From contig OZ253462.1 in the NCBI GenBank assembly GCA_965261395.1, positions 2,560,001-2,624,000 of the forward strand: a DNA stretch of 64,000 nt, in the 5' to 3' direction. Of this stretch, positions 3,063-18,271 are shown in pieces. A program made the position numbers and the translations under genes. The DNA is from Candidatus Latescibacterota bacterium (lineage in GTDB: Bacteria; Latescibacterota; UBA2968; UBA8231). The number at the start of each line of letters is the position of its first letter. Within the stretch, counting starts at the first letter, position 1. A model generated the notes under the pieces. It did no database searches and had not been told where the DNA came from. It saw only the letters and a list, made by a program, of their open reading frames with translations.

Positions 3063-4823
3063 ATGCACCGCTATCGCACCCACACCTGTGGCGAACTCCG
3101 CAAGCGCCACGCCGGCCAGACCATTGGCCTGAGCGGCTGGATACACCGCAGAAGGGACCACGGGGGCGTACTGTTCCTAGATCTGCGCGACCACTACGGC
3201 ATCACCCAACTGGTGATCTCGCCGGAAAATGACGCTGCGACCACCGCGGCAAAGATCCCCCGCGAATCCGTAATTCGCGTCCTAGGCGACGTGCGCGAAC
3301 GATCGCCTGCGGCCATTAACAGCGCCATGAAAACCGGAGAGATTGAAATCGCCGTCCGCGAGATAGAAGTACTCTCGCCGGCGGAGCCGCTCCCCTTTTC
3401 CGTGGCCGAAGACCCCGAAGTGGGCGAGAGCACCCGCTTGTCCTATCGCTTCCTCGACCTGCGCCGGGCCGGGCTGCACCGCCGCATTCAGCTCCGCTCG
3501 GACGTGATCGCCAGCATCAGACGGCGCATGACGGGCATGGGTTTTGCCGAGTTCCAGACGCCCATTCTCACCAGCAGCTCGCCCGAGGGCGCACGCGATT
3601 ACCTCGTGCCGAGCCGACTCTATCCCGGCCACTTCTACGCACTGCCGCAGGCACCGCAGCAGTTCAAGCAGTTGCTGATGGTGTCCGGCTTTGATCGCTA
3701 CTTCCAGATCGCACCCTGCTTCCGCGACGAAGATGCCCGCGCCGACCGCTCCCCTGGCGAGTTCTATCAGCTCGACCTCGAGATGGCCTTTGTCGAGCAG
3801 GAGGATGTCTTTGCTGTGGTCGAGGAACTCTTTTCCGGTCTCTTTCGCGAGTTCACCGATTGGGAAGTGCCCGCGCCGCCGTTCCCGCGTCTTTCCCACG
3901 CCGACGCCATGTTGCGGTTCGGCACGGACAAACCAGACCTGCGCTTCGCACTCGAAATCCAGGACCTCTCCGAGATTTTCGCGGATTCCTCGTTCAGGCT
4001 GTTCAGGGATATCGTCGCAGCAGGAGGGGTCGTCCGCGCCCTGTGCGTTCCCGGACTGGAGGCGCAGCCGCGCTCGTTTTTCGACAGCCTCGAAACATTC
4101 GTCAAAGAAGCGGGCGGCAAGGGGCTGGCATATCTCATCAACGGAGCGCAGGCCACAGGCTCAATCGCCGCGGCCCTAGAACAGAGCGTGCGCAGTCGCA
4201 TTATCGAGGAATGCGCCGCCGCTCCGGGATCAGCCATTTTCTTTATCGCCGGACCGCCAGCCGAGGTAGCGACTCTAGCGGGACGGTTGCGCCTGCATCT
4301 GGCGGATCGGCTCGATTTGCGTAGGGAAGGTTGCTATGAATTCTGCTGGGTCGTCGATTTTCCCATGTACGAATGGGACGCGGAACACGCTTGTGTGGCC
4401 TTTTCACACAACCCGTTTTCCATGCCGCAGGGTGGCATGGCTGCGCTGGAGACGCAACCGCCGCTGGAGATCAAGGCGTATCAGTACGACATCGTCTGCA
4501 ACGGCCTCGAACTGTCGAGCGGTGCCATCCGCAATCACAGACCAGACATCATGTACAAGGCGTTCGAGATTGCCGGACATTCGCAACGGGAAGTCGATCG
4601 CAGGTTCGGGGGCATGATCCGCGCCTTGCGCTACGGCGCTCCGCCCCACGGCGGCATCGCCCCCGGCATCGACCGCATCGTCATGCTGCTGGCGGACGAA
4701 CCGAACATACGGGAGGTCATCGCCTTCCCGATGAACCAGAATGCGCAGGATCCGCTCATGGGCGCTCCGGGAGAAGTGTCGCCTGAGCAGTTGCGGGAGT
4801 TGCACATAGCGGTTCGGGAGTGA
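3063..4823 (+). CDS. aspS: Aspartate--tRNA(Asp/Asn) ligase, probably non-discriminating
   Basis: [16 protein letters not shown] (His typical of non-discriminating enzymes), [37 protein letters not shown]. Confidence 0.97.
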
Positions 4824-4871
4824 TATTATTCTTGAAATGGACCTCAGCGACCCAAGAAAGTGAGCCCTGCC

Positions 4872-5810
4872 ATGAAAACACAACGCTACCAACTCCGCAT
4901 CAGCGGTTTAAGAGAAGACAAAGGTCAAATCAAGATAGCGACTCTCCGGCGTGTTATGGACGCCCTTCTCGTGATAGCAGAGAGGACCACCCGCTTGCTC
5001 GCTACGGGCGCAGGTAGTGGGAGGGGAGCGAGGCCTCAGTGGCTGGACGCCACCATTGACTTCACGATAACTAGATTGAAATCCGGATCTACGATTTTTG
5101 ACATAGAGGCTCCCCAGCTTAGTGAGACTGCCTACGCACAATTTGTCCAAGAAGATTTATGGAGCAAGCAGCCCAGCCTAGACGAAACGGCGCTCGATCT
5201 GGTAGCTCAATCGATCAAAGAGACCCAGACCGACAATCCAATTGGAGACTATTTCGACAGTTCGGTTCTCGAAGCGATTCTCAAGTTCAGGCAAGCGGCT
5301 GGCGTTGCTGGTGTGCGCTATGAAATGATCCCTCAAGACACGGCGCATGGGCAATTCAAGCTGGACGACATTACTTGCACATACGCCAAAGAGCGATTGA
5401 ATGACATCCCGACTCCAAGGTCTTTTATCGTAAGTGGAAGGCTCGACGAGATCAAACATGGTAATGGTCGCTTTCGCCTTCTGGTGAGCGAGAAGTCAGC
5501 ACTCTTTGGACGGCTGGACGCGTCATTGGGCGTAGAGGCTTTGCGTCCTCTATGGGGTAAGCAGACCACCATTGAGGGAATGGTGCATTTCAAGGCCAAT
5601 GGGCAGCCGCGATTGATCGAGGCTCGCCGGATTAGTGCTCGACTGGAAAGTGATAGCATTTTCGAAGAAATGCCGTCAGTAGAAGTCCAAAGACCGCGTG
5701 TCCTTTTTTCGGTACAACGCAAACAAGTCAAAGGGTTCGACCCTATTGAGCTTGCGGGCGCATGGCCTGGCGATGAACCCATCGAGGATCTCCTAGCCCA
5801 ACTTGATTGA
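4872..5810 (+). CDS. Hypothetical protein preceding a PIN remnant (possible large antitoxin)
   Basis: 312-aa ORF from ATG 4872 (track start 4860); acidic tail WPGDEPIEDLLAQLD; 11 nt before a PIN-like start. Confidence 0.65.
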   Translation: MKTQRYQLRISGLREDKGQIKIATLRRVMDALLVIAERTTRLLATGAGSGRGARPQWLDATIDFTITRLKSGSTIFDIEAPQLSETAYAQFVQEDLWSKQPSLDETALDLVAQSIKETQTDNPIGDYFDSSVLEAILKFRQAAGVAGVRYEMIPQDTAHGQFKLDDITCTYAKERLNDIPTPRSFIVSGRLDEIKHGNGRFRLLVSEKSALFGRLDASLGVEALRPLWGKQTTIEGMVHFKANGQPRLIEARRISARLESDSIFEEMPSVEVQRPRVLFSVQRKQVKGFDPIELAGAWPGDEPIEDLLAQLD

Positions 5811-5821
5811 GCGATATTTTT

Positions 5822-5968
5822 ATGACGCGTTTCCTCCTAGACACGAATCTGTTGCTCGGTTTCGCCCGGAAAGCATCGTGGGCTATCCGGGCTCGCGCAG
5901 AATTCAATCTCGGAGATCCAATAAGCGACCTGACCATGCCCATTCGGGAGCCAATACAGAAAGGCTAA
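5822..5968 (+). pseudogene. Truncated PIN/VapC toxin
   Basis: MTRFLLDTNLLLGFARK...; PIN N-terminal LLDTN motif, only 48 aa. Confidence 0.65.
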
Positions 5969-5978
5969 ACGCATATGT

Positions 5979-6026
5979 ATGAAAGAGTTTACGGTGATTA
6001 TCGAGCAGGACGCGGGACGGCAATAA
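5979..6026 (+). pseudogene. HicB-like antitoxin N-terminal remnant
   Basis: MKEFTVIIEQDAGRQ*, resembling the HicB start FTVIIEQDEDG. Confidence 0.45.
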
Positions 6027-6047
6027 TCGTCTTGAACGTACATACTC

Positions 6048-8033
6048 ATGCCTGACCACAGCTACTTCGCTAACCTGATCTGGCAGATCGCCGACCTGCT
6101 GCGCGGTCCCTACCGCCCGCCGCAGTACGAGCGCGTCATGCTGCCTATGACCGTGCTGCGGAGGTTCGACTGCGTGCTTGCTCCGAGCAAGCCCGAAGTC
6201 TTGGCCGAGTACAGCCGCTGGGGCGGGAGACTCGACGGCGAAGCGCTCGACGTTAGGCTGAACAGGGCTGCCGGTCAGCGCTTTCACAACCACTCGCCGC
6301 TCGATTTCGAGAAGCTCAAGGGCGATCCAGATAACATCGCCCGGCACCTCGTCAGTTACATCCAAGGCTTTTCGGCCAACGTGCGCCGCATCTTCGAGTA
6401 CTTCGAGTTTGAGACTGAGATCGAGAAGATGCAGGAGTCGAATATCCTCTACCTCGTCGTCTCAAAGTTCTGCGATGTAGATCTACACCCCGATAGAGTT
6501 CCGAACGAGCAAATGGGTCTTCTCTTCGAGAACCTCATCCGCCGCTTCAACGAGTTGGCGAACGAGACTGCAGGCGACCACTTCACGCCGCGCGAGGTCA
6601 TCCGGCTAATGGTGAGCATCCTCTTCATTCACGACGACGAACTGCTCGCCACGCCCGGCACCGTGCGTAAGCTCCTCGACCCCGCTTGTGGCACCGGCGG
6701 CATGTTGGCCGAGGCGCAAAATTACCTGCGAGATCTCCACGCCGCTGCCCGGCTCTACGTCTATGGGCAGGACTATAACAACCGCGCCTTTGCCACCGCA
6801 GCCTCCGACATGTTGATGAAGCAGGTTGATCACAACGGCGGCGGAGACAGCATCCGCTTCGGAGACAGCCTTACAGGGGATCAATTCGAGGGTGAGACCT
6901 TCGACTACTTCCTCACCAATCCGCCCTTCGGCGTGGACTGGAAGAGGCAGAAGAATGAGATCCAGAGGGAACACGACAAGCTCGGATTCGAGGGCCGCTT
7001 CGGCGCTGGACTCCCGCGAGTGAATGACGGCTCGCTGCTTTTCTTACAGCATATGACCCACAAGTTTGAGCCAGTACGCCCAGACGAGCACAAGCACGGC
7101 TCGCGCTTGGCCATCGTATTCAGTGGCTCGCCGCTCTTTACCGGCGGTGCTGGCTCCGGCGAGAGCGACATTCGCAAGTGGATCATCGAAAACGATTGGC
7201 TTGAAGCCATCATCGCCTTGCCGGAACAGATGTTCTACAACACCGGCATCGGCACCTACGTATGGATCGTCACCAACCGCAAAGAGAAGCGGCGGCAGGG
7301 GAAAATCCAGCTTCTTGATGCCCGCGACTTGTGGACCGCGGGCGGGAGTGAAGACAACAAGCGCAGCCTTGGCGATAAGCGCCGCCACATCGCCGCAGAG
7401 CAGATTGAGGAGATCGTGCAGCTATATGGCCGCTTTGAGGACGGCGAGCGCTCCAAGCTCTTCGACAACGCTGACTTCGGCTACACACGCGTGACCGTGG
7501 AGCAACCTCTGCGCTTGCGCTACCAGATGACCATAGAAGACAAGTCCCGCTTTCTCGATGCCTGCCCGTACCTGCTCGACGACGTGCAGGCCATCGACAA
7601 GGCGTTGGGACGCGAGCCGAAGTACGACTGGAATGCGACATGGGAGAGCATTGCCGATCTCCTGCATGAGCACCAATCGCGCTGGAAGAAGGTAGAACAG
7701 AGGCTCTTCCGAGATGTCTTCACCGAGAAGGATCCGCAAGCCGAGCGGGTCAGGAAAGATGGCCGGGAGAAAGGCTACGAGCCTGACACCGCGCTGCGCG
7801 ACTTCGAGAACGTGCCGCTTAAAGACAACATTGACGCCTACTTCGAGCGCGAGGTAGCACCCCACCTTCCCGACGCTTGGATGGACCGCGACAAGGACAA
7901 GGTCGGTTACGAGATCAACTTCAACCGCCATTTCTATAAGTACACGCCGCCGCGCCCGCTGGAAGAGATTGACGCAGATCTGAAGAAGGCGGAGAAAACG
8001 ATCTTGCGGCTGTTGAAGGAGGTGACGGAGTGA
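6048..8033 (+). CDS. hsdM: Type I RM methyltransferase subunit M
   Basis: AGDHFTPREV, LDPACGTGGML, TNPPFG (amino-methyltransferase motif), MFYNTGIGTY, KVGYEINFNRHFY. Confidence 0.95.
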   Translation: MPDHSYFANLIWQIADLLRGPYRPPQYERVMLPMTVLRRFDCVLAPSKPEVLAEYSRWGGRLDGEALDVRLNRAAGQRFHNHSPLDFEKLKGDPDNIARHLVSYIQGFSANVRRIFEYFEFETEIEKMQESNILYLVVSKFCDVDLHPDRVPNEQMGLLFENLIRRFNELANETAGDHFTPREVIRLMVSILFIHDDELLATPGTVRKLLDPACGTGGMLAEAQNYLRDLHAAARLYVYGQDYNNRAFATAASDMLMKQVDHNGGGDSIRFGDSLTGDQFEGETFDYFLTNPPFGVDWKRQKNEIQREHDKLGFEGRFGAGLPRVNDGSLLFLQHMTHKFEPVRPDEHKHGSRLAIVFSGSPLFTGGAGSGESDIRKWIIENDWLEAIIALPEQMFYNTGIGTYVWIVTNRKEKRRQGKIQLLDARDLWTAGGSEDNKRSLGDKRRHIAAEQIEEIVQLYGRFEDGERSKLFDNADFGYTRVTVEQPLRLRYQMTIEDKSRFLDACPYLLDDVQAIDKALGREPKYDWNATWESIADLLHEHQSRWKKVEQRLFRDVFTEKDPQAERVRKDGREKGYEPDTALRDFENVPLKDNIDAYFEREVAPHLPDAWMDRDKDKVGYEINFNRHFYKYTPPRPLEEIDADLKKAEKTILRLLKEVTE

Positions 8034-9295
8034 CTAGACGGGTAGCATCCCTGTTCCCGGCCAAGCGTTTGAAACATGTCGTATCGCTGCGGCGGTCGCG
8101 CGTCGATGGAAATGAGGACGACAGGCCGTACGTCGGGCTAGAAAACATCGAGTCGTGGACCGGAAAACTTCTTGGTAACTCGGCGGCGACTGACGAGGCC
8201 CGTTCGGCCATTATGGTAGAAGGCACATCGCTTAGCAACACCTTTGAACCCGGTGATGTGCTCTTAGGAAAACTACGTCCGTATCTCGCAAAGGTCTGGG
8301 TCGCGGAGTTTCCGGGCCGGTCTACTACCGAACTCCTTGTCATGCATCCGGTGGAGATCGAGCCGCGCTTTCTTCGGTACGTTTGTCTTTGGCGTGACTT
8401 CGTCGATGCGGTAGACGCTTCGACGTTTGGCTCAAAGATGCCAAGGGCCGATTGGGACTTCATCGGGAACATGTCCGTTCCAATTCCAGAGTGGAGCAAG
8501 CAACGCGCCATCGCCGACTATCTCGACCGCGAGACGGCACGGCTGGATGCACTGGTAGGGGAAGAGGAACGGCTACTCGGACTGTTGGCCGAAAAGCGCA
8601 GTGCGCTCATCACCTGCGCCGTCACCCGTGGCCTCAACCCAAACGTCCCGCTCCGCGACTCCGGCATTCCTTGGCTTGGCGAAATTCCAGCGCATTGGGA
8701 AACTGAACGCGCAAGATGGTTGTTCAGGGAACGCGATGAACGTTCCGATACGGGAGAAGAAGATCTCCTCACTGTGTCGCACCTCACTGGCGTGACTCTT
8801 CGTTCAGAGAAGGAAGTCAACATGTTCGAGGCGGCGACAAAAGAGGGATACAAAATCTGCCTCTCAGGCGATCTCGTAATCAATACGATGTGGGCATGGA
8901 TGGGTGCGATGGGTGTGTCGTCCTTAGACGGTATCGTTAGTCCGGCCTATAACGTCTATGAGCCTAGAGCGCGTCTTGATCCGAGTTATGTCGATGCCTT
9001 GGTGCGTTTGCCAGCGTTCGCTCAAGAGGTAACGCGATACTCAAAGGGTGTATGGTCATCCCGGTTGCGCCTCTATCCAGAAGGCTTCTTCGCGGTCTCA
9101 CTCCCTGTACCCCCGCTCAGCGAGCAGCGCGAGATCGTTGCCCACATAGCGAATGAAACATGCAAGTTAGACGGGCTGCGCGACGCGACGAAAAGGACCA
9201 CGGTGTTGCTCAAAGAGCGTCGAGCAGCGCTCATCTCAGCGGCAGTTACAGGTCAGATCAACATGGAGCAAGTGGCATGGAAATCACCTCGCTGA
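8030..9295 (+). CDS. hsdS: Type I RM specificity subunit S
   Basis: Two TRDs with conserved spacers: QRAIADYLDRET...VTRGLNPNVPLRDSGIPWLGEIPAHW and LLKERRAALISAAVTGQI. Confidence 0.93.
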   Translation: MTRRVASLFPAKRLKHVVSLRRSRVDGNEDDRPYVGLENIESWTGKLLGNSAATDEARSAIMVEGTSLSNTFEPGDVLLGKLRPYLAKVWVAEFPGRSTTELLVMHPVEIEPRFLRYVCLWRDFVDAVDASTFGSKMPRADWDFIGNMSVPIPEWSKQRAIADYLDRETARLDALVGEEERLLGLLAEKRSALITCAVTRGLNPNVPLRDSGIPWLGEIPAHWETERARWLFRERDERSDTGEEDLLTVSHLTGVTLRSEKEVNMFEAATKEGYKICLSGDLVINTMWAWMGAMGVSSLDGIVSPAYNVYEPRARLDPSYVDALVRLPAFAQEVTRYSKGVWSSRLRLYPEGFFAVSLPVPPLSEQREIVAHIANETCKLDGLRDATKRTTVLLKERRAALISAAVTGQINMEQVAWKSPR

Positions 9296-10605
9296 AACTC
9301 GCCAACATCCGTTCAATTGAGACGGCTGAGTTTCGATTCCAGCCGGGATTCAACTTGATCGCCGGAGTGAACGGTGTCGGGAAGAGTACCGTTTTGGATG
9401 CCTTGCGCTTCTGTCTATCTCAGATTCTCACCTTGACGACCCAGTCTCGCGCCAAGGCGCTATCCTTTGACAAAAGAGACATACGTAGTGGCTTCCCTCT
9501 CCTAGATGCAGAACTATCGTTGACCATTGGTGGTGAAAATCTCCGTTTCACGCGACGCCAGTGGAGGGAGGAGTTCGCTGTGGATGACGACGAAAATCTC
9601 AAGAAGCTTCGACGGAAGATTCTGGAGTCAGAACGGCTGCGTGACCGGGCGCGCAATCTTCTTCGTGAACTTGAGGCGTCTCACGGGGTTCATGACTCTA
9701 ATTCCTTCGTGCCATCAGAGGCTCGCTTCCTGATCGCCGCCCGCATCGCTGAGGTAGCTCCCAACTGCGTCTTCTTCTCCCCCAATCGGTCCGTGATCTC
9801 TTCTGCTAGTACAGCCAAGTCGAGAGCAGCGGGAGGTAAGGCCGCGGCCTACGCTGAGGCCCTTGTTCCGCGACCGATGTACGTCGCTCAATTTGCCCAC
9901 TGGATGCGAGTGCAGGAGGCTCTTGCCAAGGAACAGAACACAGCAGAACGACACCTACAGGCGCTGCGATCGGCGGTCTACGAATTCCTGCCAACTTATG
10001 AGAACCTTCGTCCGGCTGATGAGGCTGATAAAAAATCATCGTACCTGATGATAAACCAGGGCAGGATTGAGCTTGACGTAGAACAGTTGTCGGACGGCGA
10101 GCGAGGCGTGTTAGCCTTGGTCCTCGACCTCGCTCGACGGCTATCCCAAGCAAATCCATCACTCGATAATCCACTGAGCGAAGGTCATGCGGTCGTCCTG
10201 ATCGACGAAATTGACCTGCATCTGCACCCGAAGTGGCAGCGGCAGATCGTCCACAACCTGACCACCACTTTCCCGAAATGCCAGTTCATCGCGACGACTC
10301 ACTCACCGCAGGTCGTGGCGTCCGTCGAGCCCGATCAGGTTCACCTTTTGGCTCCTGTTGGAATCATCCATCCGGACCGCAGCCTTGGGATGGATTCAAA
10401 CTGGATCCTACGCCACCTCATGGAGGCCGATGACCGACCCGAGGCTGCTATGGCAGCCATTCAATCTGTTGAAAGCTTGATTGAGGAAGGAACCTTCGAG
10501 GAAGCGCACGCCGCGATCTCAGAGGCTAGGAAGAACGGGCTTGATCTACCAGAGTGGTCCGTTCTTGAAACGCGCATAGCTCGACTGGAGATTTTGGCCG
10601 AATGA
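9277..10605 (+). CDS. ABC/AAA ATPase, PtuA (Septu/retron effector)-like
   Basis: Likely start MEITSLKLANIRS at 9277; GVNGVGKS Walker A, LSDGER signature, VLIDEIDLHLHPKWQR, TTHSPQV. Confidence 0.85.
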   Translation: MEITSLKLANIRSIETAEFRFQPGFNLIAGVNGVGKSTVLDALRFCLSQILTLTTQSRAKALSFDKRDIRSGFPLLDAELSLTIGGENLRFTRRQWREEFAVDDDENLKKLRRKILESERLRDRARNLLRELEASHGVHDSNSFVPSEARFLIAARIAEVAPNCVFFSPNRSVISSASTAKSRAAGGKAAAYAEALVPRPMYVAQFAHWMRVQEALAKEQNTAERHLQALRSAVYEFLPTYENLRPADEADKKSSYLMINQGRIELDVEQLSDGERGVLALVLDLARRLSQANPSLDNPLSEGHAVVLIDEIDLHLHPKWQRQIVHNLTTTFPKCQFIATTHSPQVVASVEPDQVHLLAPVGIIHPDRSLGMDSNWILRHLMEADDRPEAAMAAIQSVESLIEEGTFEEAHAAISEARKNGLDLPEWSVLETRIARLEILAE

Positions 10606-11312
10606 AGTACATCCAGAAGACCGGATGCCCGCACTCTTATTCCGAGTGGTGCGCTGCAGTTGCGGGAACGAATAAGTCTGATTGGCGTGAGGTGCCTTCG
10701 GCCCAGAAGGAGCTAATATTGGCGGCTATGATTGCAGATCAAGGCGGGTTGTGTGCCTATACGATGCGTCGAATCTACAATAATTCATCGCATGTGGAGC
10801 ATATCAAGCCACAGAGTCGCTGCCGGCAGGACCTGCGTGGGTCTGACTTGGACTACACCAATTTGGTCGCGTGTTTCCCACAACACGGTATGAAGGCACC
10901 GTATCGCTATGGCGCACAATTTAAGGGTAATTGGTGGGAGAACGATGGCACCGAATTCGTGTCTCCGCTTCAGCCTGCTTGCGAACAGGTCTTTCGATTC
11001 AAGCTTGATGGTGAGATTGAGGCAATCGACAATCGAACCGAAGCCAGAACCACGATTGACGTCCTCGGTCTCGATCACAGGAGTCTTACCGAGGATCGAA
11101 AGCGCGTCATTGAGGAGTTCATCTACGGGCGGACGAGGGATAACCCAATATCTTATACCGCCGCGCAGCGTGCACGAGACAAGATTTGCGATCGTAACGG
11201 GAATAGTCGCTTCCACGAGTTCTGCGTTGCAATACGAGCAGCTCTAGAAGAGCATATGGCAGCCCTCACGAAACTCCGTCAGCGCAGGAGATACGCGCGG
11301 AGGAACAGATAA
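10602..11312 (+). CDS. HNH endonuclease, PtuB/TIGR02646-like
   Basis: MKYIQK...[12 protein letters not shown]...HVEHIKPQS...LDYTNLVAC; ATGA-coupled to the ATPase. Confidence 0.8.
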
Positions 11313-11313
11313 C

Positions 11314-14300
11314 TTGCCGAGTGACGACAGGCATTCCGAAGCCGCCTTCGAGACCGTCATCGAAGCGCACCTACTCCAGAACGGGTACGTCTCTGTTGCT
11401 GGAGACGGCTTCGACCGCGACCGCGCGATCTTCCCCGATACCATCCTCGCGTTCATCCGCGAAACCCAGCCCGTAGAATGGGCCAAGCTAGAAGCGCTCC
11501 ACGGCGACCAAACCGGCGAGCAGATTCTCACGGACCTGTGCAAGTGGATGGACGCCAACGGCTCGCTCGCAACCCTGCGCCACGGTTTCAAGTGCTATGG
11601 GCGGATGCTCCACGCGGCGTTCTTCAAGGCAGCCCACGAACTGAACCCAGAGCTCGAAGCCCGCTACGCAGCTAACCGACTCGGACTCACCCGCCAGCTC
11701 CGTTTCTCCCCTCAGTCGGAGAAATCGCTCGACGTAACCCTAAGCCTGAACGGCATCCCCATCGCCACGGTGGAGCTCAAAAACCCACTCACCGGGCAAA
11801 CGGTAGAGGATGCGATCCACCAGTACCGGCACGACCGCGACGCACGCGAGCCGATCTTTGAGTTCAAACGCCGCACGCTCGTCCATTTCGCCGTCGATAC
11901 TGAATGCGTGCGTATGACCACGCGCCTAGCCGGCGACGCGACCTACTTCCTGCCCTTCGACAAGGGATGTGAAGGCGGTGCCGGGAATCCGCACGCTCCG
12001 GCAGGCCGTAGCTACCGGACGGCCTACCTTTGGGAGGAAGTACTCGCCCGGGACAGCCTGCTCGATGTGCTCGCCCGGTTCATCCACTTACAGACCGAAG
12101 AGAAGCGCGACGATCGTGGCCGCAAGGTGAAGGCCGAAACGATGATCTTCCCGCGCTACCACCAGCTCGATGCCGTCCGGCTGCTGGTGCAGAAGGCTCG
12201 CTGCGAGGGCGTCGGCAACAACTACCTCATTGAGCATTCGGCGGGCAGCGGCAAAAGCAACACGATAGGCTGGCTCGCGCACCGCATTGCTTCCTTGCAC
12301 AACGAGGCAAACGAGCGCGTCTTCGATAGCGTGATCGTGGTGACCGATCGCGTCGTGCTGGACCAGCAACTGCAAGACACGATCTACCAGTTCGAGCACA
12401 AGCTCGGCGTCGTGCAGAAGATCGACGAGCGTTCCCGACAGCTTGCCGAGGCTCTGGAGAACGCCGTCCCAATTATCATCACCACGCTACAGAAGTTCCC
12501 CTTTGTGTCGCGGCAGTTACTCAAGATGGCCGAAGAGCAAGGCGTTGAGGGGACAGGCGTACTTCCTACCCGACGCTGCGCCGTCATCATAGACGAAGCG
12601 CACAGCTCGCAGGGAGGAGAGACGGCGACGGATCTCAAGGAGGTCCTCGGAGGTAAAGAACTGCTGGAAGAGGCTCGGAAACGTGCGGAGGAGGAAGGCC
12701 GTGAGGACCAGGAGGAACTGTTTCGCAGCATGGCCAAGCGCGGCCGGCAGGCGAACCTGAGTTTCTTCGCCTTCACAGCCACGCCCAAACACAAGACGCT
12801 TGCCGTGTTCGGCCGAGACGGAGAGCCGGGCCATCGCTACACAATGCGGCAGGCAATCGAGGAAGGATTCATTCTCGACGTGCTCAAGCACTACACCACG
12901 TACTCGACCTACTTCAAACTGCTTAAGGCGTGCCAGGATGATCCAAACGTCGAGCGGAAGAAAGCAGCGCTGGCGCTGGCGCGCTTTCTGCGCCTGCACC
13001 CCCACAACATCGCGCAGAAGACCGAAGTGATGGTCGAGCACTTCCACGCCGTCACGCGCCACAAGATCGGTGGTCGCGCCAAAGCGATGGTCGTCACCAG
13101 CTCCCGGCTGGAAGCGGTGCGATACAAGCAGAGCTTTGATCGTTACATCCAAAAGAAGCAATACGCAATCAAAACACTAGTAGCCTTCTCGGGAGAAGTT
13201 CGAGACGACCAGCTTCCGAACGAGTCTTACACCGAGGAGAAGATGAACCTAGGCATCCGGGAGAAGGAGCTTCCGGAGAAGTTCGCGACCCCAGAGTATC
13301 AGGTGCTGCTCGTCGCGGAGAAATACCAGACCGGGTTCGATCAGCCGCTCCTACACACGATGTACGTGGACAAGCGGCTCGCCGGCATCCAAGCAGTCCA
13401 GACGCTCTCCCGCCTGAACCGCACCCACCGGCTCAAGGAGGACACTTTCGTTCTCGACTTTGTAAACGACCCTGAAGAAATCCGCGAGGCATTTAAGGTC
13501 TATTACGAAGGGGCAGAGATGGGAGCGGAGGTCGATCCCGCCCGAATGTACGCGGTCAAAGGGGAACTCGACGCGGCCGGGATCTATCTCGATGAAGAAG
13601 TTGAGCGGTTCTGTGAAGTTTACTTCAAGCCAAAACAGCGTCAGAGCGTCCAAGATCACCAAGCGATGCACGCCGCGCTCGGTCCTGCGGTGTCGCGCTT
13701 TAGAGCCCTGCAGAAAGATGACGAGGACGAAGCAGAACTCTGGCGCGGAAAGGTCCAAGCCTTTCGCAATCTCTACGGCTTCCTGAGCCAAGTCATCCCG
13801 TACCAGGATTCGGACCTTGAACGCCTGTACGTATTCCTGCGTCATCTGGCGGCAAAGCTACCACGGCGGCAGAGCGGTCCCGCCTATCAGTTCGATGACG
13901 AGGTGCGGCTTGAGTACTACCGCCTACAGAAGATCAGTGAAGGCTCGATCTCCCTCGCGGGGGGTGACGCACACGTCCTGGATGGGCCGACCGAAGTTGG
14001 CAGCGGCGCTGTACATGAAGAGTCGGTGCCGCTTTCGCAGCTCATTGACGTTGTCAACGAACGCTTCGGTACCGACTTCAATCAGGCCGACCAGCTCTTT
14101 TTCGATCAGATCGTCGAGGCGGCCATGAGCGACGATGGACTGCGCCAAGCAGCCGCAGTGAACCCAGAGGACAAGTTCGAGTTGGTGTTCAGGAATCTTC
14201 TGGAACGACTCTTCGTTGAGCGCATGGACCAGAACGAGGAGATTTTCGTCCGCTACATGAACGACCAGCCGTTCCAACAGTTGGTGAGCGAGTGGCTGGC

Positions 14301-14871
14301 GTCTCAGGCGTACCAGCGACTCCGAGATGGGGATGAGGTCTCAGCCACCACTCAACTTGACGCGGCCCAGTCTCCTACTTTGCGCATCGTCGCCCCCAAG
14401 CCCGACGAGCGTTACGTCACCTGCGTGCCGCTCGTGCCGCTTGCTATCGCGGCCGGCGAGTTCGGCAATCCTCAGAACGTGGCAGCCGAGGAGGACTGGG
14501 AGTGGGTCGAGGTGGATTCTGCACACCGCTTGCGACCGGGGATGTTCGTCGCACAGATCGTGGGCCGCTCAATGGAACCCGCGGTCCCCGACGGAGCACA
14601 TGGTTTATTCCGCGCCCCCGTAGAGGGCACACGCCAAGGTAAGACGGTATTGGTTCAACTTCAAGACGCTATCGACCCCGAGACCGGGGCGAGGTACACC
14701 CTCAAGCGATACGAGAGTAAGAAGATCCAAGACGGTGACTCATGGCAGCACGCCAAGATCACACTGAAGCCGACCAATCCCGAGTTCGAGCCCATCGTCC
14801 TCACGTGCGCCGACGAGGGCGAGGTGGCAGTTGTGGCGGAACTGGTGGAGGTAATCGCTGCCAATGCCTGA
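11314..14871 (+). CDS. hsdR: Type I RM restriction subunit R with C-terminal S24 (LexA-like) peptidase domain
   Basis: TVELKN nuclease motif, [37 protein letters not shown]; C-terminal AAG...GRSMEP...TLKR. Confidence 0.93.
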
Positions 14872-14962
14872 CGCGATGCTCCTTGTTGTCCTTCGTCTCA
14901 CCTTCTGCATACTTCAGTGCATCGCGCAACCCGTCTATAATCTCGCCGCCGATCTCACTCAT
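14872..14962 (-). pseudogene. N-terminal remnant of a HigA/YiaG-type HTH antitoxin
   Basis: GGAGGAG RBS then [31 protein letters not shown]; similarity ends at the hsdR stop; no HTH seen. Confidence 0.5.
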
Positions 14963-15013
14963 GCTCTCCTCCATCGAATGCTTTCAATCTGACCGCGCCA
15001 CCCGCCCAAGCAA

Positions 15014-15925
15014 TCAGCGCGCATACCCATCCGGATTGTCCCGCCGCCAATTGGGCTGATAGCCTTCCTTGGCGTCAAAGCCATACGACGGCCCGATCTG
15101 GTTTGCAGACCGCCAAGGCCAAGCCTGGCCGCCGATGATGCGGAACTGATCGCCCTTACCACAGAGCCAGTAGAACATGTGGGCGTAGTATCGCGCCGTG
15201 CCGTGCCCGCCGTAATACGCGCTCTGGAAATCAAAATCTTCCTCGACGATCCAATCGCGCTGGGGAGGTGCCGTGCGCCAGTAATTGTATTTGAGCATCC
15301 GGCGCAGACCCTTGGCAGTGGACTTGCCGCGGCGGTGCATGATGCTCTGATGGTGAATCCCAATGGTGCCGGCCGGGCCGTCGCAAAACACGCCCCCTTC
15401 TTCGTTGTCGCGGCGACCAGGTTGGATGTGCGAGCCAGGCACCAACTCGGTCGGCCCCAGCTCCACGGGCGTGTCTTGGGGAAAGTAGAAGACCTCCAAA
15501 AAGCGTAGTTCCGGGCCATAGATGTGGTCGGCGTCTTGGTGCCAGCCTTGGGGTTCCATTGGGCATTCGACCCGGTGGTGGCTGGCTACGATCGGCAGGC
15601 CGATGTTGGGACCTAAAAGCGAGCGCATGGCACCGGCGAACTGGGGATTGAGCAGGACGTGCTCGATGAACCAATCCTCCAAGAAGATGGAACTCGGCTC
15701 GTGGGTAAAGCGGATGCGGTCGAGGTCGGCCTCGGTCAGGCCGGTGGGGATGTAGCTCGGGTTGGCTGGAATATCGCCATCGAGCCAAGCACAAGTGCGT
15801 TGGTTGATCTCGTCGGACACGACGCCTTTGAGCAAGAGATGGCCCTCGCGGCAGAATTCGAGGACTTGGGAATCAGTGAGCGTCGGCTCGCAGTCAAAGG
15901 TGCGTCGGCATGGGTTGTAGTGCAT
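15014..15925 (-). CDS. PhyH-family dioxygenase
   Basis: QGWHQDAD, YFPQDTP..LGPTELVPGSH, IMHRR. Confidence 0.85.
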   Translation of the reverse strand: MHYNPCRRTFDCEPTLTDSQVLEFCREGHLLLKGVVSDEINQRTCAWLDGDIPANPSYIPTGLTEADLDRIRFTHEPSSIFLEDWFIEHVLLNPQFAGAMRSLLGPNIGLPIVASHHRVECPMEPQGWHQDADHIYGPELRFLEVFYFPQDTPVELGPTELVPGSHIQPGRRDNEEGGVFCDGPAGTIGIHHQSIMHRRGKSTAKGLRRMLKYNYWRTAPPQRDWIVEEDFDFQSAYYGGHGTARYYAHMFYWLCGKGDQFRIIGGQAWPWRSANQIGPSYGFDAKEGYQPNWRRDNPDGYAR

Positions 15926-16093
15926 GCTCTCCTCCTCGATAATGGTTGTCTTTTTTGCCGCCTGTCCCTACGGGGTCGTTGGCATATATGCGCTAGCGCC
16001 TACAAGCTATCCAAATCCCGTCCATCCTGTCCATAGGTCGCTCGCGCTATAAATAGTTATACTTTTGCTCGGCAAAATTAAACGGAGTACATC

Positions 16094-18271
16094 ATGGCGG
16101 AATCAGCAAAAAAAATATCCAACGGCGGATTGCACATCGATCAGCGGCTCTACGCCCTCGTCGCCGAGCAGATCGCGCCTGGGACAGGCGTGGATGTCGA
16201 TCACTTGTGGGCGGCGCTGGGAAAGATTGTCCAAGACTTAGGGCCAAAGAATCAACAGCTACTTCAGCGGCGCGACGCCTTGCAGGCCCAGATCGACGCC
16301 TATCACCAACAGCGGCGCGGCGAGCCGTTGGACCCCACAGGTTACCGGACCTTTCTCGAAGGGATTGGATACTTGCTGCCCACGGGCGGCGCGCATCAGA
16401 TTCGCACGGAAAACACCGACCCAGAAATCGCCTCCCTAGCCGGCCCCCAGCTCGTCGTCCCGGTTGACAATGCGCGCTACGCGCTCAACGCGGCGAATGC
16501 GCGCTGGGGCAGCTTGTACGACGCCCTGTACGGCACGGATGTGATTCCCGGCGCGGCGAGCGCAGAATACGACGCCGAACGCGGTGCCCAAGTCATCGCG
16601 CGCAGCGAGGCGTTGCTCGACGCGGCCGCGGGCCTCCAACAGGGTGCGTACCGGGAGGTAGTGGAATTTTTCCTGCGCGAGGACGCCAGTGGGCAAACCT
16701 TGCGCGCCCATCTCGCAAGCGGCGACGAAGTTGGCCTCAAAGACGCCGGACAGTTCGTCGGCTATAGATGCGAAGGCGAGCGGCTGAGTAGCATTTTGCT
16801 CCGCCACAATGGGTTGCACCTCGAAATCCAAATCGACCGCACGCATCCCATTGGGCGCACCCACCGCGCCGGCGTCAAAGACGTGCTTTTAGAAGCGGCC
16901 ATTACCACCATCGAGGATTGCGAGGATTCCGTGGCCGCGGTCGATGCCGAGGACAAGGTCCTCGTCTATGGCAACTGGAACGGCCTGATGCAGGGCACGC
17001 TGGAGGCGACCTTTGTCAAGGACGGGCAAACCCTGACGCGCCGCCTGCGGGCCGACCGCACATTTACCGCACCCAATGGCCACACCTTGACCCTGCCCGG
17101 GCGCAGCTTGTTGCTAGTGCGCCACGTCGGCATCCACATGTACACCGATGCGGTGACCACAGCCGACGGCGCGGAAATCCCCGAGGGCTTTCTCGACGCC
17201 ATGGTCATCAGCTTAGCGGCGATCCACGACCTCAAGGGCCGCGGCCGCTACCGCAACAGCAAGACCGGCAGTGTCTATGTGGTGAAGCCCAAACAGCACG
17301 GGCCGGACGAGGTAGCAGCGACCGTCGAGCTATTTGCACGGGTGGAGGAGGCGCTGGGGCTGAGTAAAAACACCCTGAAAATCGGCATCATGGACGAAGA
17401 GCGCCGCACCACAATCAATCTCAGCGAGTGCATCCGCTGCGCCGCCGAGCGCGTCGTCTTCATCAACACCGGCTTTCTCGACCGGACTGGCGACGAGATC
17501 CACACCAGCATGGAGCTGGGTCCCATGTTGCCCAAGATGGAAATCAAAAACCAACCCTGGCTCAGTGCTTATGAGGACTGGAATGTGGATGTTGGGATCG
17601 CCACCGGTTTGGTGGGACGAGCGCAGATTGGCAAGGGGATGTGGACCATGCCCGAGCGGATGCGTGAGATGGTAGAGACCAAGATAGGCCACCCCCAAGC
17701 TGGGGCGACGACCGCTTGGGTGCCATCGCCGACAGCAGCCACCCTGCACGCGCTGCACTACCACCAAGTTGATGTCTTCGAGCGCCTCGCCCAGCTAGCC
17801 GGACGGGAGCGGGCCTCGCTCGGCGCGATTCTCAGCCCTCCGGTGCTCAATCGCCAGCTCAGCCCCGAGGAAATTCAGCAGGAGTTGGACAATAACGCCC
17901 AAGGCATCCTCGGCTACGTGGTGCGCTGGGTCGGCCAAGGCATTGGCTGCTCCAAGGTGCCGGACATCAACCACATCGGCCTGATGGAAGACCGCGCGAC
18001 TTTGCGGATTTCCAGCCAGCACATAGCCAACTGGCTGCACCACGGGATTGTCAGCGAGGAGCAGATGCGGGCGACGTTTGCGCGCATGGCAGCCGTAGTC
18101 GATGCACAAAACAGCGGCGATCCAGCGTACTACCCCATGGCACCCGACCTCGACGCCAGCGTCGAATTCCAGGCGGCGCTGGAGCTAGTATTCAACGGCC
18201 GCATCGAACCGAACGGATATACGGAAAACGTGTTGCACAGGCGGCGTCGAGAGGTGAAGGCCGCCCGCTGA
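16094..18271 (+). CDS. glcB: Malate synthase G
   Basis: [71 protein letters not shown]. Confidence 0.97.

Follow-up and report, generated by a model that had tools for sequence, protein, structure and literature searches.

The stretch of DNA analysed here (the window, 64,000 nt) spans positions 2,560,001-2,624,000 of contig OZ253462.1 in the 6.55-Mb genome of Candidatus Latescibacterota bacterium (GCA_965261395.1), and it harbors a type I restriction-modification (RM) operon that includes a PtuA/PtuB gene pair of the Septu defence family. Five genes lie on the plus strand in the order hsdM-hsdS-ptuA-ptuB-hsdR, with aspS (3063-4823) on one side and a PhyH gene on the minus strand (15014-15925) on the other. 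The methyltransferase gene hsdM (6048-8033; 661 amino acids) matches PADLOC MTase_I (PDLC03029, 7.2e-258) and the Pfam families N6_Mtase (5.7e-52) and HsdM_N (4.8e-24), and the specificity gene hsdS (8030-9295; 421 amino acids) matches PADLOC Specificity_I (1.1e-81). These are followed by ptuA (9277-10605; 442 amino acids), encoding the Septu ABC-type ATPase (PADLOC PtuA, PDLC00271, 1.9e-116), and ptuB (10602-11312; 236 amino acids), encoding its HNH nuclease partner (PADLOC PtuB, PDLC00346, 3.6e-55). The restriction gene hsdR (11314-14871; 1185 amino acids) closes the series, with matches to PADLOC REase_I (3e-37), to the Pfam families HSDR_N, SWI2_SNF2, ResIII and a T1R_D3-like family, and to NCBIfam TIGR00348 (8.9e-59, below its cutoff). 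By Pfam, PADLOC and NCBIfam, the RM system has HsdM, HsdS and HsdR, each at full length.

The junctions between these genes are very tight. The TGA stop of hsdM and the GTG start of hsdS overlap (GTGA), the ATG of ptuA lies 19 nt within hsdS behind a Shine-Dalgarno-like GGAG, ptuA and ptuB share an ATGA overlap, and the TTG start of hsdR, preceded by a Shine-Dalgarno-like GGAGG, is found one base past the TAA of ptuB. Together, the five genes make up a single operon with translational coupling. A promoter and terminator scan of 4700-16200 returned 3 and 11 sites, respectively, where 3.8 and 10.4 are expected by chance. In related loci (see below), the hsdS stop and the ptuA start overlap in 30 of 32 cases, the overlap being 4 nt long in 22, 19 nt in six and 14 nt in two; as the same gene order recurs with these overlapping junctions, the layout is not a product of chance. 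The five genes and four junctions stand exactly at the coordinates given in the first-pass annotation, a reading of the letters and open reading frames, and its assignment of the pair as PtuA/PtuB-like is borne out by the two PADLOC matches and by the fold of PtuA. Both PADLOC matches are essentially full length, covering 1-418 of 421 profile positions for PtuA and 1-212 of 214 for PtuB.

PtuA also matches the Pfam families AAA_21, SMC_N and AAA_15, and its ATPase motifs are intact. In an alignment of 28 homologues, the initial methionine is invariant, as are G30, N32, G35 and K36 of Walker A (G30-K36), S272, G274 and E275 of the signature (S272-E275), D310 and E311 of Walker B with the catalytic glutamate (D310-E311), and H342 of the H-loop. 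The AlphaFold model (predicted local distance difference test, pLDDT, 84.4) ends in a C-terminal domain of three helices (residues ~361-442). The PDB matches listed by Foldseek for this model were all PtuA chains (E 1.8e-24 to 1.1e-19), from the retrons Ec83, Ec78/Eco7 and IA and from E. coli Septu (8eea, 8ee4, 8sux). Aligned by sequence, the window protein and E. coli Septu PtuA (8ee4) start together at residue 1, while in the four retron PtuA chains shown, window residues 4-11 pair with chain residues 63-69 (~64-69). This offset against the retron proteins, and its lack against 8ee4, indicates that the retron-specific N-terminal domain is missing here; in retron PtuA, that domain (~60 amino acids) is described as contacting the reverse transcriptase and its multicopy single-stranded DNA (RT-msDNA) (PMC12673091).

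In PtuB, C51, E66, H67, N87 and C91 are invariant in 59 sequences and Y53 is 94% conserved, with E66-H67 and N87 making up the HNH core. The protein passes NCBIfam TIGR02646 (78.7 bits, cutoff 52.15), and no Pfam match and no PDB sequence match were obtained for it. The homologues fall into two PtuB types, of which that in the window reads CAYT where the other reads CCYC, so that one zinc ligand, a cysteine of the CxxC pair, has been lost. The NCBIfam retron-Ec78 equivalogs match both PtuA (7.7e-70) and PtuB (1.8e-19), each under its equivalog cutoff. Judged by its sequence, the pair is a retron-less type I Septu module, composed of a PtuA ABC ATPase and a PtuB HNH nuclease. Identity to the PtuA C-terminal domain of the window (residues 361-442) is 78-95% in loci whose PtuB is 73-84% identical, and only 20-30% in those with PtuB at about 25%. 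The three-helix domain co-varies with PtuB, as would be expected if it held PtuB; this fits the solved Septu and retron complexes, in which the C-terminal helices of PtuA are reported to hold PtuB (PMC12673091).

No retron accompanies the pair, in agreement with the first-pass annotation. No reverse-transcriptase family was matched by the flanking open reading frames of the window (Pfam, PADLOC) and none was seen among 53 scanned neighbouring open reading frames of related loci. The sole RVT_1 match in the genome (G000:C1:2314719-2315159) is located ~254 kb from ptuA. A search of 4500-16200 against Rfam at E<=1 returned no match, although Rfam need not cover every retron RNA.

To what extent this layout is shared was surveyed with PtuA as a query against one genome per GTDB species, which yielded 79 loci; these were annotated using local profiles made from the proteins of the window. 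In 45 of these (L004-L048), PtuA is at least 37% identical to that of the window; one (L032) lies on a 1.7-kb contig and could not be judged, and in all 44 evaluable loci hsd genes adjoin ptuAB. Among the 34 loci with less than 37% identity, six are RM-flanked (L059, L064, L065, L069, L072 and L073) and 28 are not. In 14 RM-embedded loci re-checked by tblastn, PtuB follows PtuA directly with a 4-nt overlap. A replicate survey of Joint Genome Institute (JGI) metagenome contigs gave 80 loci with PtuA at 39-72% identity, 67 of them with sufficient flank on at least one side, and hsd genes stand beside PtuA in 63 of these 67. The four exceptions are L146; L185 and L186, in which a lone PtuA-like gene lies between an ArsR/DUF2087 gene and an MscS gene; and L195, with two PtuAB pairs in tandem. 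Close homologues outside RM operons, which would have spoken for a pair unconnected with restriction, are thus rare in both collections.

The carriers belong to Latescibacterota, Acidobacteriota, Nitrospinota, Pseudomonadota, Spirochaetota, Deinococcota, Planctomycetota, Gemmatimonadota, Myxococcota and Armatimonadota, and a Methanothrix archaeon is also among them. The same five genes are found on the conjugative IncP plasmid pKvSKV1 of Ketogulonicigenium vulgare, where RefSeq labels them methyltransferase, subunit S, AAA family ATPase, retron system putative HNH endonuclease and type I restriction endonuclease. The Septu-in-type I RM layout is real, but it is common and widespread.

Four of the genomic loci (L034, L041, L042 and L047) read hsdM-hsdS-ptuA-ptuB with no hsdR within at least 8 kb downstream. 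This arrangement would suit a scheme that makes PtuAB an alternative effector for the methylase core, the HsdM2S1 complex marking self or reading unmodified sites and PtuAB, rather than HsdR only, inflicting the damage, and Septu PtuAB is indeed reported to degrade DNA (PMC12673091). However, full-length hsdR is kept in 50 of the 52 metagenome loci evaluable downstream, and in the hsdR-less L042 the ptuB frame has only 103 amino acids and may be broken. Furthermore, PtuB and an intact hsdR persist in two loci that have lost most of PtuA (L072 and L073, described below), and neither Pfam nor the 28-sequence alignment showed a domain that would link PtuA to HsdS or HsdM. We regard this scheme as very unlikely.

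Several of the more distant loci are unusual in other respects. In L072 and L073, both from Bryobacterales, PtuA is cut to its first ~64 residues with PtuB and the whole RM operon intact, and in L073 the remnant is apparently joined to the PtuB reading frame. In L064, a single frame of 782 amino acids (7980-10328) spans hsdS and the PtuA match, representing either an hsdS-ptuA fusion or an assembly artefact. Distant PtuAB pairs also occur within other defence loci: the pair of L060 is flanked by a PglX-like methylase and BrxL in a BREX locus, and that of L071 by a RAMP gene and Cas10 in a locus of type III CRISPR-Cas. In nine cyanobacterial loci (L049-L057), PtuAB at 32-36% identity always follows a gene for a calcineurin-like phosphoesterase (Metallophos) of ~303-318 amino acids. 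We had considered this 303-318-residue frame as a retron reverse transcriptase and rejected it on its Pfam match to Metallophos; the phosphoesterase and PtuAB may constitute a three-gene Septu variant. The genome of the window itself carries two further PtuA/PtuB pairs (L123, G000:C1:3077000-3095000; L124, G000:C1:1503000-1521000). One of them is followed by HmaC (2e-99) and NsnA/NsnB, making it a Septu in an Hma-type island, and the neighbours of the other are unclear.

A quick maximum-likelihood tree was built from 79 PtuA rows, leaving out L083-L099 (probable duplicates of named loci), L102-L122 and rows shorter than 330 amino acids. The RM-embedded rows cluster: a 42-row clade with a support value (SH-aLRT, Shimodaira-Hasegawa-like approximate likelihood ratio test) of 97 consists of 41 RM-embedded rows and the unjudgeable L032. 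The RM label requires five changes on the tree, compared to a mean of 24.4 when labels are shuffled, and none of 500 shuffles was as low. On this tree, the RM-embedded state of PtuA traces back to essentially one origin. The many RM-embedded loci are consequently kin, and they do not provide independent support for a coupling between the two systems.

Within the operon, the degree of conservation differs strongly from gene to gene. HsdM is 73-95% identical to that of the window in 35 of the 37 related loci with a match, the low outliers being L019 (69%, a 161-residue fragment at a contig end) and L065 (54%). HsdR is 74-96% identical in 38 of 41, with the fragmented genes of L046 and L064 and the HsdR of L069, which belongs to a different RM family, below that range. 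Over the 45 loci with PtuA of at least 37% identity, the identities to the window are 37-88% for PtuA and 23-84% for PtuB. In DNA, the 200-nt bins of hsdM and hsdR show 86-99% identity, also in comparison with a Nitrospinota contig (L004), which matches window positions 6000-11400 at ~86-95% identity over hsdM, part of hsdS, ptuA and ptuB. The 86-99% DNA identity of hsdM and hsdR to a contig from another phylum implies that the cassette was recently transferred between phyla.

Between these conserved arms, the DNA identity falls sharply to 33-54% in blocks: in hsdS at ~8000-8400 or 8600-9200, the two target-recognition blocks, which are exchanged among cassettes that are nearly identical elsewhere; in ptuA at 9400-10200 in L010, L011 and L009; and over all of 9400-11300 in L040, L031 and L027, with identity returning just inside hsdR. 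At the protein level, PtuA is conserved in residues 1-40 and 281-360 and variable over residues ~41-300. Its middle (residues 41-280) exists in at least two forms, type a, to which the window belongs and which has an extra helical stretch of ~40 residues, and type b, which lacks it. Combined with the two PtuB types, all four combinations are found in 33 loci (b2, 17; a2, 9; b1, 5; a1, 2), and these combinations mix in addition with the presence or absence of an HsdR tail (described below). These patterns show that the target domains of hsdS, the middle of PtuA, and PtuB together with the C-terminus of PtuA have been swapped as separate blocks between conserved arms. The shuffling of hsdS domains is well known, and the variable centre of the cassette behaves like an extended version of it. 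The block-wise swapping also points to those parts of Septu that may carry specificity.

The mobility of the cassette, which is ~90% identical in DNA across phyla and also occurs on a conjugative plasmid, brings to mind a selfish stabiliser, i.e., an addiction module that penalises loss of the RM cassette or aids its persistence with no real anti-phage role, and on the Ketogulonicigenium vulgare plasmid a Phd/YefM antitoxin gene is found just upstream of the five genes. In the window, however, the operon has no antitoxin-like partner (Pfam, PADLOC), and the block-wise diversification resembles arms-race variation. Septu has reportedly been supported by experiment as a defence family since the work of Doron in 2018. 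It is also treated as an experimentally supported defence family in PMC12673091, and a purely selfish role is in our estimate highly improbable.

The space between hsdS and hsdR was next considered independently of PtuA. A reverse survey with HsdM as a query in 168 genomes of the window's phylum found 17 besides that of the window with HsdM at 83% identity or more, of which 16 loci were evaluable (L098 is cut off); these genomes are mutually related, and the counts are descriptive only. The slot contains ptuAB directly after hsdS in 11 of the 16 and other cargo in five, and is empty in none. Three loci (L085, L094 and L095) carry a type II 5-methylcytosine methyltransferase and restriction endonuclease in the slot, L087 carries AbiJ and a homologue of orf316 (see below) there, with PDC-M32 between its hsdM and hsdS, and L088 has a complex insertion. 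In a sister RM family (HsdM ~52% identical), the same slot holds AbiP/AbiC, CapP, PDC-S02, Olokun, HEC-01, SoFic and PDC-M54.

Additional genes also occur alongside ptuAB, and in the loci of the forward survey they always lie between ptuB and hsdR. These extras are DarT with Macro (L020), RhuM (L022, L018), AAA with S8 (L025), M78 with DUF4411 (L026), a DDE transposase (L012) and DUF6575 (L012 and L044, the latter representing the related L013 cluster). In L024, three more ABC-ATPase-like genes, one of them followed by a DUF4276 gene, occupy 11136-17414 between ptuB and hsdR, and this slot thus stacks several ATPase-based systems. Beside the extras, duplicated 5' fragments of hsdR are found in L013 (11008-11427), L094 (9994-10443), L095 (6238-6606) and L097 (10415-10834), suggesting that the 5' end of hsdR is the insertion point for cargo; ptuA would remain next to hsdS because cargo enters at this other end. 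The hsdS-hsdR slot of this RM family is a general cargo site.

The reading that we favour, and that we hold to be probable, is that a horizontally mobile type I RM operon carries a Septu of the stand-alone type (type I) as cargo between its hsdS and hsdR genes. PtuAB would then be an autonomous layer of defence that shares its promoter, its translational coupling and its vehicle with the RM system. Oligomers of PtuA would hold PtuB through their C-terminal helices, gated by nucleotide state, and infection would free the nuclease to act against DNA or tRNA, the substrates described for Septu PtuAB and for Retron-Eco7, respectively (PMC12673091). Such a layer could serve as a second line against phages that escape restriction, and the link to the RM system would consist of co-expression and co-transfer, not of control by the Hsd proteins.

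Some of the observations weigh against this cargo reading. The PtuA clade is almost never found outside a type I RM operon, with 44 of 44 genomic and 63 of 67 metagenomic evaluable loci hsd-flanked, ptuA invariably comes directly after hsdS, its start overlapping the hsdS stop in nearly all loci, and even the loci without hsdR still have hsdM and hsdS. These patterns would also fit a functional dependence on the methylase core. In addition, our literature search turned up no experiment on an RM-embedded Septu.

The same patterns bear on the interpretation put forward in the first-pass annotation. PrrC of EcoprrI is an anticodon nuclease whose gene is transcribed together with the hsd genes and provides a second layer of defence. 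By analogy, the RM complex would keep PtuAB latent, and a phage anti-restriction protein disabling that complex would release PtuAB as an abortive-infection back-up. Several features are in keeping with such a guard: ptuAB lies between hsdS and hsdR, the slot of prrC, as the annotation had claimed; its PtuA clade is faithful to RM operons; 30 of 32 loci have the ptuA start overlapping the end of hsdS; and loci that lack hsdR retain hsdM and hsdS. Restraint by a partner also has a precedent in the family, retron PtuAB being described as toxic alone and held in check by its partner (PMC12673091). However, the slot of the same RM family accepts unrelated cargo (type II RM, AbiJ, DarTG, RhuM and others), and PtuAB is kept in four loci without hsdR. 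Outside its ATPase core, PtuA is hypervariable and assorts independently of RM variants, with HsdM and HsdR at 73-96% identity; hypervariability beside near-constant Hsd proteins is not what a conserved interface predicts. PtuA also lacks the N-terminal domain by which retron PtuA binds its restrainer and has the architecture of a stand-alone Septu, its embedding has essentially one origin, so that the loci are not independent support, and distant PtuAB pairs are found alone, next to Hma, or within BREX and type III CRISPR loci. Thus, the PtuAB identity, the prrC slot and the absence of a retron hold, while the guard proposed on their basis has no direct support and is weakened by the diversity of cargo and by the single origin; we consider it rather unlikely.

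In a more specific form, this PtuAB clade would depend on the type I complex or on its HsdM2S1 core, anti-restriction proteins would release the nuclease, and the middle block of PtuA would set which phage factor is sensed. We regard this version, too, as doubtful; if true, a dependent PtuAB would be a two-gene modular analogue of PrrC. The near confinement of this PtuA clade to one slot across phyla provides a clean system in which functional coupling could be distinguished from shared transport and expression, and cultured carriers exist, e.g., the strain bearing the Ketogulonicigenium vulgare plasmid.

Two further features of the window accompany the cassette. The HsdR protein ends in a LexA/S24-like C-terminal domain of 185 residues (residues 1001-1185; 14314-14868, plus strand). 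Pfam Peptidase_S24 is matched by all 24 aligned HsdR tails (26.7 bits for that of the window, cutoff 23.3), and the Ala-Ala upstream, the serine of GxSMxP and the lysine of TxKRY are invariant among them, with the glycine after Ala-Ala nearly so. In a model of the tail (pLDDT 80.5), the top Foldseek PDB matches are all C-terminal domains, from LexA, the lambda repressor (CI) and UmuD, and the likeness in fold includes the region of the cleavage site. A complete tail is present in 26 related HsdR proteins; one further copy is cut by a contig end, and HsdR forms of ~1010-1040 amino acids lack the tail. A fusion of HsdR to a LexA-like tail was not found in the literature search. If the tail is active, it could tie restriction to a DNA-damage signal through self-cleavage stimulated by RecA.

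The second feature is orf316 (4860-5810, plus strand), a gene with no assigned family that travels with the RM cassette and in the window is located upstream of hsdM. Neither NCBIfam nor PADLOC returned a match for it, and Pfam at E<=1 gave nothing except a single weak match at the level of chance. It is placed in the Atlas in a cluster of 869 hypothetical proteins, for which the nearest named family is DUF6575 with a weak score of 0.79. Homologues adjoin the cassette in ten loci (L010, L011, L040, L013, L044, L087, L094, L096, L097 and L099); they are located 3' of hsdR in L013, L044, L094, L096, L097 and L099 and within the slot in L087. The bin that contains orf316 (5001-6000) has the lowest G + C content of the region (0.516).

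Compared with known systems, the pair is closest to type I Septu as solved from E. coli (PDB 8EEA/8EE4). Both consist of two overlapping genes, for an ABC-type ATPase and then an HNH nuclease; the PADLOC matches are full length, PtuA has the PtuA fold with its N-terminus directly at the Walker A strand, and there is no reverse transcriptase. They differ in that sequence similarity to the solved protein is limited to the ATPase core, the window PtuA keeps the Walker B glutamate and has the additional ~40-residue helical stretch in its middle, its PtuB is of the type minus one CxxC cysteine, and the pair resides within a type I RM operon. With the retron I-A systems, or Septu type II (Ec78/Eco7, Ec83/Eco4), it shares a homologous effector pair, a TIGR02646 score above cutoff, C-terminal PtuA helices that probably pair with PtuB, and best PDB matches, in sequence and in fold, to retron PtuA proteins. 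Unlike these systems, it has no reverse transcriptase within 254 kb, no Rfam match to a non-coding RNA and no N-terminal PtuA domain of ~60 residues, and the NCBIfam equivalog cutoffs are not reached.

What the pair shares with PrrC of EcoprrI is an ABC-type ATPase head and a position between hsdS and hsdR in a type I RM system. PrrC is a single polypeptide with its own nuclease domain, whereas the window has two genes with a separate HNH partner, and PrrC was not among the best 25 of the 145 PADLOC families matched by the window. On sequence grounds, the pair is neither a retron I-A system nor a PrrC homologue. PrrC itself is described as almost exclusively embedded in type I RM systems (Payne et al., bioRxiv 10.1101/2024.01.29.577857).

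The closest parallel in genomic context is the class termed 'guilt by embedding', which comprises defence systems nested in type I RM, BREX, DISARM and Hma, with Septu embedded in Hma as a textbook case (bioRxiv 10.1101/2024.01.29.577857). Another member of the slot, DarTG2, is reported to lie between hsdS and hsdR (PMC12255303). As in that class, the window has a complete known system between hsdS and hsdR, in a slot shared with other cargo, and its genome also has a Septu beside Hma. In contrast, the text of Payne et al., taken apart from its figures and supplements, names Septu as cargo of Hma and not of type I RM, and describes neither block recombination inside ptuA nor near-exclusive residence in RM operons. 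Our literature search found no study of a Septu pair within a type I RM operon, PMC12813430 and PMC12082036 dealing with other matters. The window locus is an instance of the known class of systems embedded in type I RM, adding one more known defence system nested in such an operon, and the new detail here is the block-wise shuffling of hsdS, ptuA and ptuB between the conserved hsdM and hsdR arms.

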